From Moraxella nasovis (GTDB taxonomy: Bacteria > Pseudomonadota > Gammaproteobacteria > Pseudomonadales > Moraxellaceae), in contig NZ_CP089976.1 in NCBI RefSeq assembly GCF_022701215.1, forward strand, positions 1,260,001-1,292,000: 32,000 nucleotides of DNA, in the 5' to 3' direction. A model generated the notes under the pieces. That model did no database searches, was not told where the DNA came from, and saw only the letters and a program-made list of their open reading frames with translations. The position numbers and the translations under genes are program-made. Below are positions 16,883 through 29,791 of this stretch, in pieces. The stretch's first letter is position 1, and each line of letters opens with the position of its first letter.

Positions 16883-17593
16883 GGGGCTGTACTAGATTAA
16901 CCTTAAATCCCACACCACTTCCTAAGCACTTTAAGCTGATTAAAGCTAAACCATAGTTAAATCTAAACTTCCGTCTTTGATAAAAAGATGAATGTTTTTC
17001 TTGCCAATACCGTTGTATTTTCTCAAAATACGCTTAGCTTGAGACCAGAAGTTTTCTTGTACTTTGATGTGATTGGCTCTGTTTTTTTGTTTGTAAACTC
17101 TTTTGAATGGTTTATTCTAAAATGCTTAAAACACTCACATCTAAGGCATTATAGCTTTTATAACTATCCGTATAAACAATACTATCAGGCTTGATTTTAT
17201 TAGTGATGATGGGTATGAGCGTTGTTTGTTCGGTATCTTTTACAACTATGGTATAAACCCTACTATTTCTCTTTAAAAGACCAAATACAGCGGTTTTACT
17301 CCACGACAACGCTTGCCTTTACGAACACCACCAAAATAACTTTCATCAAGCTCTATTTTACCATCAAAGCGTGTTTGAGCTTCTAGGTTAAGATGGTATT
17401 GTATCAAAGTTAAGATTTTATGGTAAAATAACGCTGCTTAAGTTTGGGTGAATTTCAAGTAAATCACTGGCTGTTCTAGCAGTAACTTGGGCGATAAAAA
17501 ATTCAAGTAGCTTTAACTGAACTTTTTTAGTAGTTTACAACGAGTTATCTTCATTTTTGTCGTATAGCATGGTTGCTAATCTACGTCAGCCCC
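16883..17593 (-). mobile_element. Decayed IS1595-family element (IS1016-group-like, 711 bp), copy 1
   Basis: The imperfect terminal inverted repeats are GGGGCTGTACTAGATTA and GGGGCTGACGTAGATTA (14 of 17 match). The minus-strand translation gives MKITRCKLLKK..., ...AVFGLLKRNSRVYTIVVKD...KIKPDSIVYTDSYKSYNALDVS... and ...FRFN. These are typical of IS1016-type DDE transposases but are broken by several frameshifts and stops. I found no flanking target-site duplication. Confidence 0.85.
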
Positions 17594-17608
17594 TAAAAAT
17601 TAAAAAAA

Positions 17609-17779
17609 TTACCTACCAAAAATCAATTTTAAAATAGCCCGTCCAAGCTTTCTTTCCCACCCGCCACGAGTGGTTGGCACGCCAAGTTTATTGGCAATTT
17701 TTAGCCTCAACCCTGTTAAGCCAACCAATCGTTTCCATGAAAAAGAAAAACCTGTGCCTTTTAATAATTTCTTACTCAT
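17609..17779 (-). CDS. Untracked small ORF encoding a 56-aa highly basic peptide (hypothetical)
   Basis: Hand translation gives MSKKLLKGTGFSFSWKRLVGLTGLRLKIANKLGVPTTRGGWERKLGRAILKLIFGR. It starts 11 nt after the stop of the H1-like gene on the same strand and ends 15 nt before the IS end. It has no convincing SD (only ggt), so its coding status is uncertain. Confidence 0.35.
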   Translation of the reverse strand: MSKKLLKGTGFSFSWKRLVGLTGLRLKIANKLGVPTTRGGWERKLGRAILKLIFGR

Positions 17780-17790
17780 ACCAAAAAAAA

Positions 17791-18132
17791 TTATTTTAGT
17801 AGTTTTTTGAGCAGCCGACCAATACCGCCCGTTGACTTTTCTTTTGCAGCACGAGCTTTTGCCATTTTCTCAGCCATCGCCCTACCTTCTTTGGTGCGCA
17901 AGTCCACTTTGCCGTCAGCACGTCTTTTAATGCTTGATGCGGTGGTTTTTTTGGTAGTAGAGTTACTTGCGGTTGTTTTAGTCGTTGTCCTCTTGGTAGT
18001 TGTTTTTTTGGCAGTTGTTTTGGCGGCTCGTGCTTTGGCTTGACGTGCTTTTTTGGCACGCTCTACCAATTCTTTGTATTCTTTGGTGCGTTTATCTACT
18101 TTGCCATCAGCAGTTTTTTTCAAAGTTGCCAT
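17791..18132 (-). CDS. Lys/Ala/Thr-rich hyperbasic protein, histone-H1-like (hypothetical DNA-binding)
   Basis: The 113-aa product has about 37 K+R against about 10 D+E by hand count. It has an internal repeat ADGKVDxRTKE...AKARAAK either side of a T/K-rich linker. A strong SD (aggaga) is present, and it is the fourth gene of a tightly spaced operon. Confidence 0.7.
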   Translation of the reverse strand: MATLKKTADGKVDKRTKEYKELVERAKKARQAKARAAKTTAKKTTTKRTTTKTTASNSTTKKTTASSIKRRADGKVDLRTKEGRAMAEKMAKARAAKEKSTGGIGRLLKKLLK

Positions 18133-18153
18133 AATTTTCTCCTAAATTTTAGA

Positions 18154-18570
18154 TCAATTTTCGTCTTCTTCGTATTCAATGACCAAATCGTCAACTTCAT
18201 CAACAAAATCATTAAAAATTTCACTTGCTCTATCTTCTGATACGTCCAAAATGTCGGCAAATGAAAAATAATTTGCCATTTCATCAATACTAATGACTAA
18301 ATCAGAAGCCAAAACATCAAGACAAACTAGCAATACTGCTTCTTTGTCGGTAATATTTTCGGCAGATGTGGCAAGATATTCATCAAACGCATCATCGTCT
18401 AGCATGTCAATGTGTTTGATCTCTTCGGCAACGACTGCATCCAAATCGCCAAGTCCTAGTTCGGTTGCTAATTGTGCGACACAGCTTTTGGCAATTTCGT
18501 CATATTCGCCACCATCTGCAATCACAGATGTTGCAATAAAAGGGGCAAGATTTTTGCTTGTTAGTGCCAT
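18154..18570 (-). CDS. Hyperacidic protein, possibly TerB-like (hypothetical)
   Basis: The 138-aa product has about 37 D+E against 5 K+R by hand count. Two segments (SVIADGGEYDEIAKSCVAQLATELGL and LDVLASDLVISIDEMANYFSFADILDVSEDRA) fit the TerB-type pattern xxA.aDG.i...E...l..ia..Lgl. That family call is a weak recollection. An SD (gaggt) is present. Confidence 0.65.
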   Translation of the reverse strand: MALTSKNLAPFIATSVIADGGEYDEIAKSCVAQLATELGLGDLDAVVAEEIKHIDMLDDDAFDEYLATSAENITDKEAVLLVCLDVLASDLVISIDEMANYFSFADILDVSEDRASEIFNDFVDEVDDLVIEYEEDEN

Positions 18571-18598
18571 ATTTACCTCGTTAGATTAGTTTAAAAAA

Positions 18599-19123
18599 TT
18601 AGTTCATAAAAAAATAAGCAGCTAGGGCTAGTAGGATAGCCGCCCCAATAATCCACACCCAAATTGGCATACCTGCTGACGTTTCTACTTTGGATTGTGA
18701 TTCGTATTCGTAAGTAATATCAAAGCCATTCTTGCCTTTGCAGGATTTATCCACTTGACCAAAAATTTGATATTGCAACATTTCTTGTTGTAAAATCGCT
18801 AAGCTTTCACCTGTCCACATTTTATTAAAACCAACTTTTTGACCATCACCCAAAACAAGCCATTCGCCATCTCCCACAAAGCAAGCGCTTTCTGCAATAT
18901 ACCATTTACTTCTCGGTCCATTTTTGCCTTGTTCGATCTCTTGATGGGTCAAAAAAAGTTCATCCATACCCGTATCTGGGCAGACATTTTGTTTGTAAAA
19001 TTTTGCTCTTAGTTCAGAAAGCGTTGTATTCGGGTACTTTTTTAGATAAGCGTGCATCATGCCCAGTGCGGTACGATTTTGACTTTTTCCAGTTACTGTT
19101 GCTGTTGAAATTTGCCTTGTCAT
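18599..19123 (-). CDS. Tail-anchored membrane protein, unknown function
   Basis: The 174-aa product has a soluble domain of about 145 aa and a single C-terminal TM helix (MPIWVWIIGAAILLALAAYFFMN). I recognise no named family. Confidence 0.65.
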   Translation of the reverse strand: MTRQISTATVTGKSQNRTALGMMHAYLKKYPNTTLSELRAKFYKQNVCPDTGMDELFLTHQEIEQGKNGPRSKWYIAESACFVGDGEWLVLGDGQKVGFNKMWTGESLAILQQEMLQYQIFGQVDKSCKGKNGFDITYEYESQSKVETSAGMPIWVWIIGAAILLALAAYFFMN

Positions 19124-19147
19124 TATAAGCTCTCTATTACAAATAAA

Positions 19148-19525
19148 TTACGACAAAGTGGCGATTAATTTTGAGCCAAATTGTCTGGTATTCCAGTTTT
19201 CATCATAATCAAGACCGATTTTATCGGCAATTTCTCTTAATGCCTCTTTGGTGTTGGCATACACTCTAAAACTAGCAACACTGCCATTATCTAATATACG
19301 CACGCAATATTCGCCAAATTGTGCAATGCCGTCTTCGCCATATTCTTTGATAAGTTTGCTACCAAACTGTCTTGTCGTCCAGTTGTCATCATAATCAAAA
19401 CCAACTTCTTGTGAAATGGCTCGCAAACTTGCAATGACATTGTCATATTCTTTTAATACACTAATACTGCCGTTTTCATGTTGCGAAACAAGATATTCGC
19501 CATAAGCGACTGATTTTACTGCCAT
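19148..19525 (-). CDS. Small cytoplasmic protein made of two tandem copies of a ~55-aa domain, unknown function
   Basis: The product is 125 aa when read from ATG 19525, which has SD aggag 7 nt upstream. The tracked ORF extends 34 codons further upstream without an SD. The two copies share GEY..NGS..LR.I...G.DYD.NW.TRQFGSKLI. Confidence 0.68.
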   Translation of the reverse strand: MAVKSVAYGEYLVSQHENGSISVLKEYDNVIASLRAISQEVGFDYDDNWTTRQFGSKLIKEYGEDGIAQFGEYCVRILDNGSVASFRVYANTKEALREIADKIGLDYDENWNTRQFGSKLIATLS

Positions 19526-19622
19526 AATACTCACTCCTATAAATAAATATTTGCTTTGGTTGTTTTTTAGCTTAGGAAAGCAAAGATTTTGCAATCCAAT
19601 CAAAAACAATAAGACACCACCA

Positions 19623-19643
19623 AACATTAAAAATGTTAACGTT
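19623..19643. promoter_or_regulatory. Cluster of AAC(A/G)TT half-sites (AACATT-aaa-AATGTT-AACGTT), candidate operator
   Basis: This inverted repeat was read directly from the divergent intergenic region between the cassette and the XRE gene. Confidence 0.3.
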
Positions 19644-19660
19644 TGTAATTTTAAAATACA

Positions 19661-19677
19661 TCATTTATAATAAATGA
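19661..19677. promoter_or_regulatory. Perfect 17-bp palindrome TCATTTAT-A-ATAAATGA overlapping a TATAAT hexamer, candidate XRE operator
   Basis: The palindrome has 8-bp perfect arms and lies about 80 nt upstream of the XRE start. An extended -10-like TGTAGAAT follows at 19685-19692. Confidence 0.4.
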
Positions 19678-19755
19678 TTATTATGTAGAATCCACCAACA
19701 AATCCGACTTTTTACACCCACTTTTTCATCATCCTACCCACAAAAAAGGGACTTT

Positions 19756-20121
19756 ATGGACATCACCAAAAATCTTGCCAACCTTAGAAAAGAACATCAT
19801 CTTACTCAAGAACAAATGGCGGAAAAATTACAAATGTCTAAAAATGGTTATGCCAAATTAGAGCGTGGTGAAAGTAGGGTTACCATTGAACATTTGTTTA
19901 AAATTGCCCAAGAATTTAACATAGATGCCAGTGAATTATTAAAAGAGCATAAAGACATAAATTTTTTATTGGGTGATAATAATACAAATTATGCCAACCG
20001 CTATTATGGCGAGACAACCATACAAATAGAAAAACTAGAACTCATCATCGCCCACAAGGACGAGCTGCTTGCTCAAAAAGACAAAGAAATCACTCTGCTA
20101 CGACAACTGCTGGATAAATAA
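19756..20121 (+). CDS. XRE-family (HTH_3) transcriptional regulator with a C-terminal coiled-coil
   Basis: The 121-aa product has LRKEHHLTQEQMAEKLQMSKNGYAKLERGESRVTIEHLFKIAQEFNI, a canonical Cro/CI-type HTH. Its C-terminal heptad-like segment is IEKLELIIAHKDELLAQKDKEITLLRQLL. It is divergent from the minus-strand cassette. Confidence 0.85.
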   Translation: MDITKNLANLRKEHHLTQEQMAEKLQMSKNGYAKLERGESRVTIEHLFKIAQEFNIDASELLKEHKDINFLLGDNNTNYANRYYGETTIQIEKLELIIAHKDELLAQKDKEITLLRQLLDK

Positions 20122-20175
20122 ATTTACCTTTGGGGCTTTTATTGATAAAATGCATTTTTATCTTGATAAATGCCC

Positions 20176-20677
20176 ATGAAAACCCTAGCAATCCTAGGCG
20201 GTATGAGCCACCAAAGCACCGCCATTTATTATAACCAAATCAATGACTTAGTCCACAATCCCTAGGGGCAAATCATTCAGCACGCCTGCTTGTACTGAGT
20301 GTGGATTTTGAGACGATTGCCAATTTGCAGCGACTTGACGATTGGCAGACCATGGGCAGCTGCTTGCTTACGATGCCAAAACCTTAGAGCAGGCAGGGGC
20401 AGACGGCATACTACTTGCCACCAATACCATGCACAAAGTCGCCCATAAGATACAGTCTGCCATCAGCATTCCATTTTTGCATTTATTGCAAGCCACAGCC
20501 CTACAACTAAGCACGCATGGCATCACCAAAGTAGGATTGCTTGGCACACGTTTTACCATGTCGGACGGCTTCTATCAGGCATATATGGCGGATTTTGGGA
20601 TTGATGTGATTACCCCCAATGCCGACACACAAGACGAAATTCATCGCATTATTTTTGATGAATTGTGCTTGGCATAA
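20176..20677 (+). pseudogene. Aspartate/glutamate racemase family (YgeA-like) pseudogene
   Basis: MKTLAILGGMSHQSTAIYYNQIN... runs into a stop. Homology continues in a second frame (LGANHSARLLVLSVDFETI...) and then a third (LLATNTMHKVAHKIQSAISIPFLHL...GLLGTRFTM...IIFDELCL). This means at least 2 frameshifts. The last ~70 aa expected from my memory of E. coli YgeA are missing. Confidence 0.75.
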
Positions 20678-20719
20678 TCAAGTTTTGCGTAGATTATCTT
20701 GATTTTAAATCATCTAAAA

Positions 20720-22303
20720 TCAATGCTCTCGGGTCGATCTAAACTCTACTTCAGGATATCTTTCTTGCATAAGCTGTAAATTGACACGGCTTGGAGCAAG
20801 ATAAGTCAGATAGCCACCGCCATCTACTGACAGCTGATCGTGGGCTTTTTTCTTAAATTTCTCAAATGCCACTTTATCATCACAATGCACCCATCGTACG
20901 GTGGCAATACTCACAGGCTCAAAGGTGCATTGTACTTTATATTCTTCTTTTAGGCGATGAGCCACCACTTCAAACTGAAGCACGCCTACCGCTCCTAAGA
21001 TTAAATCGTTATTAATTTGGGGCATAAATACTTGAGTTGCCCCTTCTTCAGACAGTTGCTGTAGACCTTTTTGTAGTGCTTTAGATTTTAGTGGATCTTT
21101 TAGCACCACACGGCGAAATAATTCAGGGGCAAAGTGGGGAATGCCTGTAAAATTTAAGGTTTCGCCACTTGTAAAACTATCACCAATCTGAATGGTACCA
21201 TGGTTATGTAAGCCAATGATATCGCCTGCATACGCCTCTTCTAGGGCTTCACGATCACCTGCTAAGAAGGTTAAGGCATCTGAAATTCGCACCTCTTTGC
21301 CGATACGAACGTGGTTCATTTTCATGCCTTTTTCGTATTTACCACTGCATACACGCATAAAGGCAATGCGATCTCGGTGTCGTGGATCCATGTTGGCTTG
21401 GATCTTAAATACAAACCCTGAAAATTCAGGCTCGTCTGCCTTGACGGTGCGTTCTATTGCTGTGTGATCTTTGGGTGGCGGTGCGTATTGGGTTAAGATA
21501 TCTAAAATCATATTAACACCAAAGTTGCCAAGTGCTGTACCAAACAGTACAGGCGTTTGTCTGCCTGCTAAAAACTCACTTTCGTCCCAGTCTTCATGAG
21601 CCATTTGTACCAATTCTAGGCTTTCTTCAAACTGTTTAAAGGCAAGCTCACCAATTTTTTGGCGAATGTCTGGATAGTCATAGCCGTCACGACTCTCAAT
21701 CTCGACGATTTCTGTACCATGCCCTTTTTTATATAGGTAGGTTTTATTATCTACTAGATGATACACACCAGCAAAATCTTGACCCATGCCAATCGGCAAA
21801 GTAAACGGAATGCATTGAATATTAAGCACTTTCTCGATTTCGTCTAACAGCTCTAAGGGGTCTTTAATCTCTCGGTCTAGTTTGTTCACAAAAGAGATGA
21901 TGGGCGTATCACGCATACGACACACTTCCATCAGTTTAATCGTACGTTCTTCTACGCCTTTAGCACCATCAATTACCATCAGGGCAGAATCCACAGCAGT
22001 CAGCGTGCGATAAGTATCTTCAGAGAAGTCAGCATGACCTGGGGTGTCAAGTAAGTTTACCATATGGTCGGCATATGGAAACTGCATGACGGATGTAGTA
22101 ATGGAGATGCCACGTTCTTGCTCCATACTCATCCAGTCGGATGTGGCGTGTTTGTCGGTTTTGCGAGATTTTACTTCGCCTGCCGTTTGGATTACCTGCC
22201 CCCACAGTAGCAATTTTTCAGTCATGGTTGTTTTACCAGCATCAGGGTGACTAATGATGGCGAATGTGCGGCGTTTGTTAATTTGGTTTTGTAGGTCGGT
22301 CAT
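20720..22303 (-). CDS. prfC: Peptide chain release factor 3
   Basis: The 527-aa product was read from ATG 22303 ([26 protein letters not shown]). It has the GTPase motifs G1 AGKT, DTPGH and NKLD. The tracked ORF has a 26-codon upstream extension that I reject. Confidence 0.95.
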
Positions 22304-22371
22304 AGTTGTGATTACGTTTAAAATTTGACATATTATAAGGCTTTGAGATGAAAAAGGCGAATTTTTGGCAT

Positions 22372-22401
22372 AAAAAAGCACTCAAAAAAGAGTGCTTTTT
22401 A
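22372..22401 (-). terminator. Rho-independent terminator after the 340-aa membrane protein gene
   Basis: The sequence aaaaagcactc-aaaaaa-gagtgcttttt is symmetric, so it could work in either direction. On the minus strand it is followed by a T-tract. Confidence 0.6.
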
Positions 22402-22421: not shown

Positions 22422-23444
22422 TTAACGCAGTCTGCGGTAGTTAGCAGCAGCAGAACGAGCACCTGCAATACTTGCGATGAACGTTAGTAGTGCACTGATT
22501 AGCCAGAATAGACCGCCGTATAATGCTGCTTTACGAGCATGATCTTCAGCTTGTGCTAGACCTTGTTCGATGTCTTGACGAGTTTCTTCGATGGTTTTCT
22601 CAGTTTTTGCTTTGTACTCTTGGTAAGTTTGAGTGGCTTCGGTACGCACTTGTTCAGCTTGAGCACGGCTTAAGCCTTGAGCTTGTAGACGGTTGATGAA
22701 CTCATCGCTTGCTAGTACGCCTTCAATGTGAGCCATGCGTGCTTTTGCATGTTCGTCTAGGTTTTTCCAAGTGTCAATGCTTGTAAAATCAAGTGATTGC
22801 ACTTCTTCTTTGGTGTCTTTTAGTAGGTTTTGAACTACAGTAGCGGTTGCACTGATTTGAGCTTGGTCGATACCGTCTAGGTTTTTTGCTAGAATGGCTT
22901 CGATGTCTTCACGGCTAACATCGCCTTTCACGCTTTCGTAAGCTGTGCGTGCTTTATTAGCAATTTCGCTGTTTGCCAATAGGCCAGAGGCTGCAGCACC
23001 TGTACCTGCAGCAGATGCCGCAGCACCTGTTACGCTGCTTACTGCACTGCCTGCACCGCTTGCTATGCTACCTACTGCATTACCTGCACCACGCACGATG
23101 CTAGTCGCACCACTCATGGCAAAGTAGCTCGTTGCTACGATGATAACCGCTGCTGTTAATACACCTGTTAGTGTTGCATCTTTTGGGTGAATGGCAGTGC
23201 CATCACCTAAGATGGATTCAGGGGCAGATGCTTTAACGGCAAAATAACCTGCCACAAAAGCACTTAATAATGCTGTGATAATGGTATAAATACCTGCTGT
23301 AATGCCTGCACCTTGTAGATCTAACGACAAGAAAGAACCAAGAACCAGTGCCAATGCTGCCATCGCAATGATCACAACAAGACCCATTAAAAGACCGGCA
23401 AAAATGCCACGCCATGAAGGTCTGGTCATAGAGATTACTGCCAT
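22422..23444 (-). CDS. Membrane protein with an N-terminal helix bundle, a Gly/Ala/Ser low-complexity segment, a charged helical domain and a C-terminal TM helix (unknown function)
   Basis: The 340-aa product has about 3-4 N-terminal TM helices. Next come GAGNAVGSIASGAGSAVSSVTGAAASAAGTGAAASG, a helical region of about 150 aa rich in E/Q/K/A, and a final TM helix LYGGLFWLISALLTFIASIAG. An SD (aggag) is present. Confidence 0.72.
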   Translation of the reverse strand: MAVISMTRPSWRGIFAGLLMGLVVIIAMAALALVLGSFLSLDLQGAGITAGIYTIITALLSAFVAGYFAVKASAPESILGDGTAIHPKDATLTGVLTAAVIIVATSYFAMSGATSIVRGAGNAVGSIASGAGSAVSSVTGAAASAAGTGAAASGLLANSEIANKARTAYESVKGDVSREDIEAILAKNLDGIDQAQISATATVVQNLLKDTKEEVQSLDFTSIDTWKNLDEHAKARMAHIEGVLASDEFINRLQAQGLSRAQAEQVRTEATQTYQEYKAKTEKTIEETRQDIEQGLAQAEDHARKAALYGGLFWLISALLTFIASIAGARSAAANYRRLR

Positions 23445-26831: not shown

Positions 26832-26907
<76 letters not shown>

Positions 26908-26989
26908 TTCCTAAGAACTCATTCGGTAAAGCCCATCTCTTGGGCTTAATCTTTTAAAAGACCATTAAAAGATATGCCGTATCAAATCA

Positions 26990-27073
26990 GGTGGGGTTGG
27001 GGAGCGGTCAAACCCAACAGACTGTAACTCTGTCGCGAAAGCTTCGAAGGTTCGAATCCTTCCCCCACCACCA
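26990..27073 (+). tRNA. tyrU: tRNA-Tyr (anticodon GUA), class II with a long variable arm
   Basis: The 84-nt sequence is near-identical in its acceptor and T-arm to my memory of E. coli tRNA-Tyr (GGTGGGG...GAAGGTTCGAATCCTTCCCCCACCACCA). The anticodon loop is cuGUAac. Confidence 0.92.
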
Positions 27074-27092
27074 TTTTTCTATCAGACACACT

Positions 27093-27166
27093 GCGGGTGT
27101 GGTTTAGTGGTAGAACCTCAGCCTTCCAAGCTGATGGTGCGGGTTCGATTCCCGCCACCCGCTCCA
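27093..27166 (+). tRNA. glyT: tRNA-Gly (anticodon UCC)
   Basis: The 74-nt sequence has acceptor GCGGGTG/CACCCGC, anticodon loop cuUCCaa and an encoded CCA. Confidence 0.92.
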
Positions 27167-27169
27167 TAT

Positions 27170-27244
<75 letters not shown>

Positions 27245-29715: not shown

Positions 29716-29791
29716 AGGCGATTGGCTCAATTGGTAGAGCATCGGTCTCCAAAACCGAGGGTTGGGGGTTCGAGTCCCTCATCGCCTGCCA
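29716..29791 (+). tRNA. trpT: tRNA-Trp (anticodon CCA)
   Basis: The 76-nt sequence has acceptor AGGCGAT/ATCGCCT, anticodon loop cuCCAaa and an encoded CCA. Confidence 0.92.

Follow-up and report, generated by a model that had tools for sequence, protein, structure and literature searches.

What is the block of five small genes that occupies positions 17609 to 20121, together with a divergent regulatory gene, in a 32,000-nucleotide stretch of Moraxella nasovis DNA (contig NZ_CP089976.1, positions 1,260,001 to 1,292,000; hereafter the window)? A first-pass annotation, made from the sequence alone, had described the block as an XRE-controlled cassette of unassignable proteins and a candidate novel accessory system, reminiscent of toxin-antidote or abortive-infection modules. 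That description was partly supported by the present analysis and was considerably enlarged. The block is very probably a real functional module. With chances that we put at about even, it is read here as the minimal, horizontally acquired Moraxella form of an undescribed module that is widespread in host-associated Bacteroidales and that may serve membrane surveillance or the response to envelope stress, most likely in a conflict role. The five products are named D (125 amino acids), T (174), A (138), B (113) and P (56), and the Moraxella form is written D-T-A-B-P. The features of the block and its flanks, in window coordinates, are as follows.

19148 to 19525, minus strand: D, open reading frame (ORF) of 125 amino acids
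18599 to 19123, minus strand: T, ORF of 174 amino acids
18154 to 18570, minus strand: A, ORF of 138 amino acids
17791 to 18132, minus strand: B, ORF of 113 amino acids
17609 to 17779, minus strand: P, ORF of 56 amino acids
19756 to 20121, plus strand: XRE/HTH_3 regulator of 121 amino acids, ORF with a Pfam match
19526 to 19755, no strand: divergent control region between D and XRE, intergenic, with a palindrome at 19660-19678
16990 to 17600 (borders approximate), minus strand: degenerate IS1595-family (IS1016-like) element on the left flank, Pfam fragment with broken ORFs
20167 to 20677, plus strand: frameshifted, truncated Asp/Glu racemase pseudogene on the right flank, partial Pfam match

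The gene coordinates and sizes, the gaps between the minus-strand genes (24, 28, 21 and 11 nt, in the order D-T-A-B-P) and the divergent XRE gene were all as first annotated. The D reading frame is open up to position 19627; its start was placed at the ATG that gives 125 residues, which has AGGAG upstream, because the homologues begin there. Of the relatives found, the metagenome contig L085 was the closest: its PrfC shares 94% identity with that of the window, and its versions of the five products are 64-82% identical in amino acid sequence. Ratios of nonsynonymous to synonymous substitution (dN/dS) against this contig were 0.15 for D, 0.22 for T, 0.11 for A, 0.10 for B and 0.07 for P. By these measures each of the five minus-strand ORFs is a real gene, conserved and subject to purifying selection; for the short ORF P, it was the conservation in L085 and the dN/dS value that established it as a gene.

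Both proposed flanking remnants were present. On the left, a 65-residue ORF fragment matched DDE_Tnp_IS1595 (E=1.7e-10, 41.5 bits, cut-off 27) over profile positions 36-94 of 153 only, in a broken transposase ORF. On the right, the match of the racemase fragment to Asp_Glu_race (E=3.7e-20) covered profile positions 56-150 of 211; the start of the protein, MKTLAILGGMS..., is encoded in a different frame, which runs into a stop codon. The block had been judged by eye to be richer in AT than its surroundings, and windowed calculation agreed: its GC content is 37.2%, compared to 41.6% for the whole window, which is about 2.7 standard deviations low among windows of the same size (standard deviation 1.7%) and the fifth lowest of 295. 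The GC content of the insertion sequence (IS) remnant is 33.8%. Within the block there was no Rfam family and no tRNA.

The evidence that these genes belong together came from other genomes. A first, word-based protein search gave nine relatives of T, and short contigs among them already had the same gene order. A pattern scan for T relatives, with one genome per species, then gave 226 places, the best 80 of which were examined; six of these 80 loci were from Moraxella and the rest from Bacteroidales, with carriers in Muribaculaceae, Bacteroidaceae, Porphyromonas uenonis, Alistipes, Alloprevotella, Barnesiella and Duncaniella. The contents of the loci were determined by tblastn and iterated hidden Markov model searches with the window proteins. 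In most loci, D, A, B and even P had homologues no more than a few kilobases from T. Family counts were made over 83 loci, 73 of them from Bacteroidales, and are lower bounds, since many contigs end early: T, the query family, was in all 83, while 67 loci had A, 63 had B, 55 had D and 41 had P. The conserved co-occurrence on which the idea of a system depends was therefore observed: homologues of all five genes stood clustered and co-directional in Moraxella and in a majority of the 73 Bacteroidales loci, and across these 73 loci 565 of 565 module genes lay on the same strand as T.

Additional families recurred in the same loci. U, a protein of about 100 residues that is frequently present in two copies, was found in 68 of the 83 loci; C, a basic coiled-coil protein of about 90 residues, in 51; I, an Ion_trans channel of about 570 residues (PF00520, E=3e-19), in 50; and N, a protein of about 230 residues whose E…D…ELK motif is characteristic of PD-(D/E)xK nucleases, in 37, including three Moraxella loci. 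The U and N proteins of one locus, L015, had no match in Pfam, PHROGs or PADLOC, and its C protein had none in PADLOC; the N and U family profiles gave nothing significant when compared to the sequences in the Protein Data Bank (PDB). In 29 loci there is a Hanks-type Ser/Thr kinase gene no more than 9 kb away; it mostly shares the strand of T and lies 1.6-4 kb upstream of it. These kinases (examples are L044:6633-8033 and L017:15059-17656) matched PADLOC models of the defence kinases PD-T4-6, mad6 and MkoA, a likeness that is probably due to the generic kinase domain. In M. pluranimalium (L010) and M. caviae (L006), the N gene directly follows T, and A and B were not detected.

The module proteins were also fused to one another, in the combinations D-T, U-T, T-U, D-U, U-N, D-N and D with another C-terminal domain. 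A further fusion combined LRR_5, a TerB-like domain, U and D; this 622-residue protein (L047:8116-9981), which joins BspA-type leucine-rich repeats to a weak DUF533 match (TerB-like, E=0.0012, under the cut-off), U and D, was the largest fusion of module domains seen. The possibility that D and U form one superfamily was considered and discarded (hhalign E=0.2), and an apparent domain shared by the coiled-coil protein C and the channel I proved to be an artefact of a split channel gene on one contig. Literature searches for this domain combination gave no description of the module, a result that does not amount to proof of novelty.

Pairing of A with B was constant. The two genes were adjacent in all 62 loci that held both, and T abutted the pair in almost all of them. 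On one metagenome contig (L004:150-574, GCA_009295485.1), where the gene order is B-A-T, the TerB gene is split into ORFs of 45 and 96 residues, by a frameshift or an assembly error. A had been called TerB-like in the first pass, and sequence homology places it in the TerB family. The window protein by itself is too divergent to give a Pfam match, and it is counted as a TerB-family member through homology to its family rather than through a Pfam score of its own: window A was linked to the family by hmmsearch (E=1e-40), 18 of the 22 aligned members matched Pfam TerB (PF05099, best E=5.5e-14), and the family profile matched the TerB structures 2ou3 and 2jxu (E of about 2e-4 to 5e-4). Four of the five products described as unassignable, D, T, B and P, remained so, with no significant match in Pfam, NCBIfam, PADLOC or PHROGs; A did not.

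The B protein consists of two ADGKVDxRTKE...KARAAK repeats, a Thr/Lys-rich linker and an amphipathic C-terminal tail, RLLKKLLK or RLKRLFK. In almost every member no other stretch is as amphipathic as the C-terminal 11-mer (median hydrophobic moment, µH, 0.74). By analogy only, the tail may be likened to the helices that target MinD and FtsA to the membrane. B had been labelled histone-H1-like, a likeness that proved to be one of composition: Pfam gave chance-level matches only (E≥0.1), NCBIfam gave none, and no histone-like or nucleoid family was matched. The computed isoelectric points (pI) of 4.05 for A, 11.1 for B and 12.0 for P bore out the description of these products as hyperacidic and hyperbasic, and the suggestion that the acidic and basic proteins are partners fits the adjacency of A and B.

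P is a basic peptide with the motif GFSFSWKR...GVPTTRGGWERKLG; it is 79% identical in L085, and the homologues in the 41 loci are about 50% identical. Its gene adjoined that of the Ion_trans channel in 23 of the 33 loci that held both. The wider P family comprised 389 clusters at 50% identity, among 1.84 billion representatives, and its motif, GxSFSWKR…GIPTTRxGxERKxG, often stands ahead of a transmembrane (TM) segment. The P motif is the mark of a wider family of small, uncharacterised membrane-proximal proteins. In three proteins (P0256, P0324 and P0340) the motif makes up the N-terminal part, in one case as two copies, and is followed by TM segments, a Cys-rich region or an excalibur-like DRDNDGVGCE end. 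Giant proteins with about ten apparent P repeats, at the top of the P search, were rejected: P0255, the only one of the large multi-stretch matches that was inspected and the one on which the false-positive reading is based, has fibronectin type III (FN3)-like repeats and a weak P match. In M. porci, a DUF4236 protein (L008:11818-12102, E=4e-22) is encoded about 0.5 kb downstream of B, after a 154-residue gene, roughly where P follows B in M. nasovis, and the Gly-rich and basic pattern of DUF4236 loosely resembles that of P.

The tandem duplication that had been noted in D was seen both in the family alignment and in the AlphaFold model (pLDDT, the predicted local distance difference test score, 91.3), as two ~60-residue βββαα domains. 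D has no enzymatic motif, and its model had no fold match in the PDB or among viral structures. A conserved WTTRQFGSK motif in D and the Thr-rich linker in B are candidate targets of the neighbouring Hanks-type kinases. More than 988 relatives were found (more than 980 clusters at 90% identity), none with a Pfam domain, and with one evidently wrong exception their public label is 'hypothetical protein'. D is a candidate non-catalytic adaptor.

T consists of an α/β domain of about 145 residues, with an invariant KxQNRTALG motif and conserved basic and polar residues in an N-terminal strand-helix-helix region, followed by a C-terminal TM helix. The helix, which the first-pass annotation had also placed there, spans residues 153-172 of the AlphaFold model (pLDDT 90.3), and T is a single-pass (bitopic) membrane protein. 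The window protein is 100% identical to LU293_06295 / WP_242746457. No PDB fold matched the T model with E<1. In Bacteroidales, T homologues carry an OmpA_C domain (PF00691, E=1.7e-20) after the TM helix; the Moraxella window protein has no OmpA domain. OmpA_C domains bind peptidoglycan, outside the cytoplasm. The position of this domain beyond the TM helix in Bacteroidales places the conserved N-terminal domain of T in the cytoplasm. The T family profile matched PDB sequences through the OmpA domain only, and relatives are publicly labelled only 'OmpA family protein' or 'hypothetical protein'. At 90% identity the family fell into more than 2,900 clusters, a part of which may be matches to the OmpA domain alone. 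Two or three T paralogues stand in tandem in M. porci (L008:9123-9971) and M. pluranimalium (L010:8028-10549), and one paralogue in these arrays is a 282-residue protein with two T N-terminal domains.

The description of the cassette as XRE-controlled held for one lineage only. The XRE protein matched HTH_3 (E=1.5e-15, 57.4 bits, gathering cut-off 23) and has a C-terminal coiled coil. Against more specific NCBIfam models (HipB, PezA, RstR and C-proteins) it scored below the cut-off in every case, including 55.6 bits for RstR (NF041951, cut-off 80), and no filamentous-phage genes were found near it. Homologues of XRE beside the module, 63-68% identical, were present only in L001 and L085. Another locus, L009, has a different small helix-turn-helix (HTH) gene with a weak XRE match, and L005-L008, L010 and L086 have no XRE or HTH gene at the module. 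In 13 Bacteroidales loci a small gene, H, which is unrelated to XRE and has no Pfam match, lies upstream of D; we take its product to be an HTH protein. Five further Bacteroidales loci have a divergent XRE-like HTH gene upstream of T. XRE control is thus plausible in the lineage of M. nasovis, L001 and L085, whereas the regulator is missing from the remaining Moraxella loci and from nearly all of those in Bacteroidales, and by sequence comparison XRE is a lineage-specific addition rather than a property of the module. The control region contains a perfect 9+9 palindrome, ATCATTTAT-A-ATAAATGAT, at 19660-19678, which overlaps a promoter-like site; L085 and L001 have a different palindrome, TTGTTAATTAACAA, at the equivalent position. 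These differing sequences look like putative operators that co-evolve with their repressors. Beyond XRE, L001 (272-508) and L085 (9076-9312) encode a conserved 78-residue, Lys/Asn/Asp-rich protein with one hydrophobic segment, which is absent from the window.

As had been proposed, the module is accessory in Moraxella, since it occupies different chromosomal sites in different species. In M. caviae (L006), M. porci (L008) and M. pluranimalium (L010) it adjoins a G3E GTPase gene, followed in L008 and L010 by a response-regulator gene and a Tex gene. In L009 the flanking genes, read from their translations, presumably encode threonyl-tRNA synthetase and initiation factor 3 (IF-3); in L005 the module adjoins a small gene pair that, also from translations, we take to resemble a toxin-antitoxin (TA) pair; and in L086 it follows a catalase gene. 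None of the loci L005-L010 contains hemA, the aminotransferase gene or prfC, and L085 alone shares prfC with the window. In that pair (L085:9447-12694 and window 17609-22381) the module lies beside prfC in both, in reversed orientation: in L085 the P end faces prfC, with an 83-residue winged-helix-like gene between them, and in the window it is the XRE end, with the racemase pseudogene between. This reversal suggests an inversion or a re-insertion at the site, and it fits local rearrangement at the IS remnant and the pseudogene.

No integrase was seen in the flanks of the Moraxella modules. The module was not found in 50,697 phage records or in 2.9 million IMG/VR viral contigs, and T had no tblastn match in 72,556 plasmids. 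Two origins were rejected on these grounds: a prophage or filamentous-phage remnant, for which there were also no PHROG matches among the five products and only an RstR score under the cut-off, and plasmid cargo. Elsewhere in the window, a Thr-Tyr-Gly-Thr tRNA cluster (26832-27244) and tRNA-Trp (29716-29791) lie about 7-10 kb to the right of the cassette, too distant to be its attachment site. Between prfC and polA, a minus-strand gene (22422-23444) encodes a 340-residue Ala/Gly-rich membrane protein with only weak HpsJ-like matches (E=0.003, under the cut-off).

How might these components work together? In the arrangement that we propose, T would anchor a cytoplasmic platform at the inner membrane, the acidic TerB protein A and the basic protein B would form a charge-complementary pair, and the amphipathic tail of B would bind the membrane. 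D, with U where present, would be a coupling adaptor that brings T, N and other partners together, in the manner of effector-associated domains (EADs). The full Bacteroidales modules would recruit or regulate a cation channel of the voltage-gated type, along with P, the nuclease-like protein and the Hanks-type kinase. In M. nasovis only the core and P would be left, with a divergent XRE gene whose product would repress them, probably by binding at the 19660-19678 palindrome; B or P may supply the output there through an action on the membrane, or the genes may be no more than a remnant core. An inner-membrane complex is suggested by the constant A-B pairing, the opposite charges, the B tail and the T anchor, and D and U are proposed as adaptors because they occur, like EADs, both standalone and fused. 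On this evidence it is rather probable that the products assemble into a complex at the membrane in which D serves as an adaptor. With the channel and P, the nuclease-like protein and the kinase, the fuller modules would have both signalling components and potential effectors, and the assembly as a whole is read as one for membrane surveillance or envelope stress. An anti-phage or conflict role is a tentative proposal, to which we would give somewhat less than an even chance. The most specific version is possible, but doubtful: that these genes are the smallest core of a new immune system of several components that surveys the membrane, or of a new kind of kinase- and channel-linked complex for envelope signalling, common in Bacteroidales of the mammalian gut and mucosa and transferred to Moraxella, with at least five families that have no model, two confident models that have no solved fold, and two new coupling domains, D and U.

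Several results weigh against the favoured reading as a whole. The Moraxella form lacks the channel, the nuclease-like protein and the kinase, and so has no recognisable effector, and none of its five products matched a PADLOC, TA or PHROG family. The absence of the module from the phage, viral and plasmid collections also counts against a role in conflict. Among the four nearest genes around 40 Bacteroidales copies, most were housekeeping genes, the recurrent exceptions among 147 flanking proteins being kinases (13), DUF4230 (8) and AAA_14/DUF4143 (5), and there was no integrase or transposase among the 25 most frequent families; such flanks fit a chromosomal physiological system as well as they fit immunity. 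The A-B and D-T contacts and the binding of XRE to the palindrome are inferred, as is the function of the module throughout, and defence or toxin-antidote action is a hypothesis.

The main rival is a physiological one, namely that the module is a housekeeping-type envelope, ion-homeostasis or stress-signalling system that senses or adjusts membrane potential, metal or osmotic state, and of which Moraxella keeps the structural core. The chromosomal location, with mostly housekeeping flanks devoid of integrases and transposases in the top 25 families, and the absence from phages, plasmids and viral contigs are what such a system would lead one to expect; the TerB, OmpA_C and Ion_trans domains, the nearby kinases and the lack of a defence-model match for most components are also in keeping with it. 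Its distribution is patchy, however, and its site varies within Moraxella; gene order is strongly shuffled, paralogues have expanded and domains have been re-fused; a PD-(D/E)xK-like component is present; and TerB proteins with membrane partners recur in validated defence systems. Since shuffling, patchiness, a nuclease-like part and TerB partners are more typical of conflict systems, we consider the physiological explanation unlikely, if still a serious one. The idea with which the first-pass annotation had begun, a toxin-antidote or abortive-infection (Abi) cassette in which B, P or both are membrane- or DNA-active toxins, A is the neutraliser and XRE the repressor, gains from the extreme and complementary charges of these proteins, the A-B adjacency in 62 of 62 loci, the amphipathic tail of B, and a divergent XRE protein with sub-threshold likeness to antitoxin and control-protein HTH models. 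It is nevertheless improbable. No TA or Abi family was matched, and no known toxin, antitoxin or defence family was recognised among the five products by PADLOC or NCBIfam; in the loci examined the A-B pair never stood alone, T being always and D or U usually present, in an architecture of five to ten genes rather than the two of TA loci; most copies have no XRE gene; and the module was not found among plasmids or phages, which commonly carry TA modules.

A third explanation, that the block encodes a nucleoid-membrane tether or chromatin-like system with B as a histone-like DNA binder and the cytoplasmic domain of T as a DNA anchor, was suggested by the basic, repetitive composition of B, by the conserved basic and polar residues in the strand-helix-helix region of T, and by the winged-helix proteins among the top, non-significant structural matches of T. 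Those T fold matches all had E>1, B matched no histone-like or nucleoid family, and its conserved tail points to the membrane and not to DNA, which makes this explanation very improbable. The IS remnant, the pseudogene, the low GC content and the RstR-like repressor would be natural features of a chance assemblage, or of a decaying prophage or IS cargo remnant, without joint function. That origin is contradicted by a gene set that is shared across phyla, by purifying selection and by the domain fusions, and there were no phage matches; we regard it as scarcely credible.

If the membrane-surveillance module proposed here is a working system, it would add abundant unannotated families, with members in Muribaculaceae, Bacteroidaceae and Porphyromonas, to what is known of membrane biology or immunity in bacteria. 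The module is abundant in gut Bacteroidales; a culturable Moraxella species offers a simple core of four to five genes, with an anchor, a TerB protein, a basic partner and an adaptor. TerB, whose role in defence is still unclear, would gain a fixed partner in B, as seen in 62 of 62 loci, and the principle of adaptor coupling would be extended to two new domains, D and U. Should the function prove to be ordinary envelope physiology, the module would still provide context for several large 'hypothetical protein' families.

Comparison with known systems places these proposals in context. Of the systems to which the regulator draws attention, type II TA loci and phage repressor regions likewise have a divergent HTH_3 gene beside small genes and a palindrome in the shared promoter region. 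They differ from the cassette in that no Pfam, NCBIfam or PADLOC toxin was found among the five products, the regulator is not conserved in the module, and the A-B pair is never a two-gene unit, T being always and D or U usually present. The Ter operon (terZABCDEF) shares a TerB-family protein with the module, and no TerC, TerD, TerA or TerZ is encoded in the cassette or among its recurrent neighbours. When the ten module proteins of L015 were compared to PADLOC, the only matches were of A to PDC-S48 and of the OmpA domain in T to ZorB and, very weakly, to a CARF model. The OmpA/MotB-type domain of Bacteroidales T proteins does resemble ZorB of Zorya (ZorA/ZorB, MotAB-like; E=1.7e-8), but the match is confined to the OmpA domain, and there is no MotA- or ZorA-like partner among the conserved neighbour families.

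Closer parallels are Bunzi, Shango and Dionysus, validated defence systems in which TerB proteins occur with membrane partners and all of which are proposed membrane surveyors. As in the cassette, a small cytoplasmic TerB protein is encoded in an operon with membrane-anchored partners. Dionysus (DinA/DinB/DinC) consists of a TM protein, a TerB protein and an effector that acts on membranes. The A family, however, aligned with DinB only over a 20-residue motif (hhalign E=0.17), the T family gave E=0.63 against DinA (399 of 557 residues compared; DinA is a MAEBL-like protein with a TM segment), and the window block has no gene for a four-TM, DinC-like pore-forming protein. Shango's SngB ATPase and SngC helicase are also missing, and BnzA of Bunzi is a TerB protein that itself contains a TM segment; in PADLOC at E≤1, no window protein other than XRE gave a match, so neither Shango nor Bunzi is present. 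The D, T, B, P and U families have not been reported in Dionysus, Bunzi or Shango, and the resemblance stops at the TerB superfamily. On these comparisons the module does not belong to Dionysus, Shango, Bunzi, Zorya, the Ter operon or any TA family.

For D and U the nearest parallel is with EADs, small non-enzymatic coupling adaptors that occur standalone and fused in the same neighbourhood in NTP (nucleoside triphosphate)-dependent conflict systems (Kaur et al. 2020, PMC7159879). No vWA-MoxR, STAND or GTPase core was found among the recurrent neighbours of the module. The likeness of D and U to EADs is one of architecture: both are small, non-enzymatic proteins that occur standalone and fused to different components of their neighbourhood. 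By analogy, the module would work most like the TerB membrane-surveillance systems, with coupling of the EAD type added to them.

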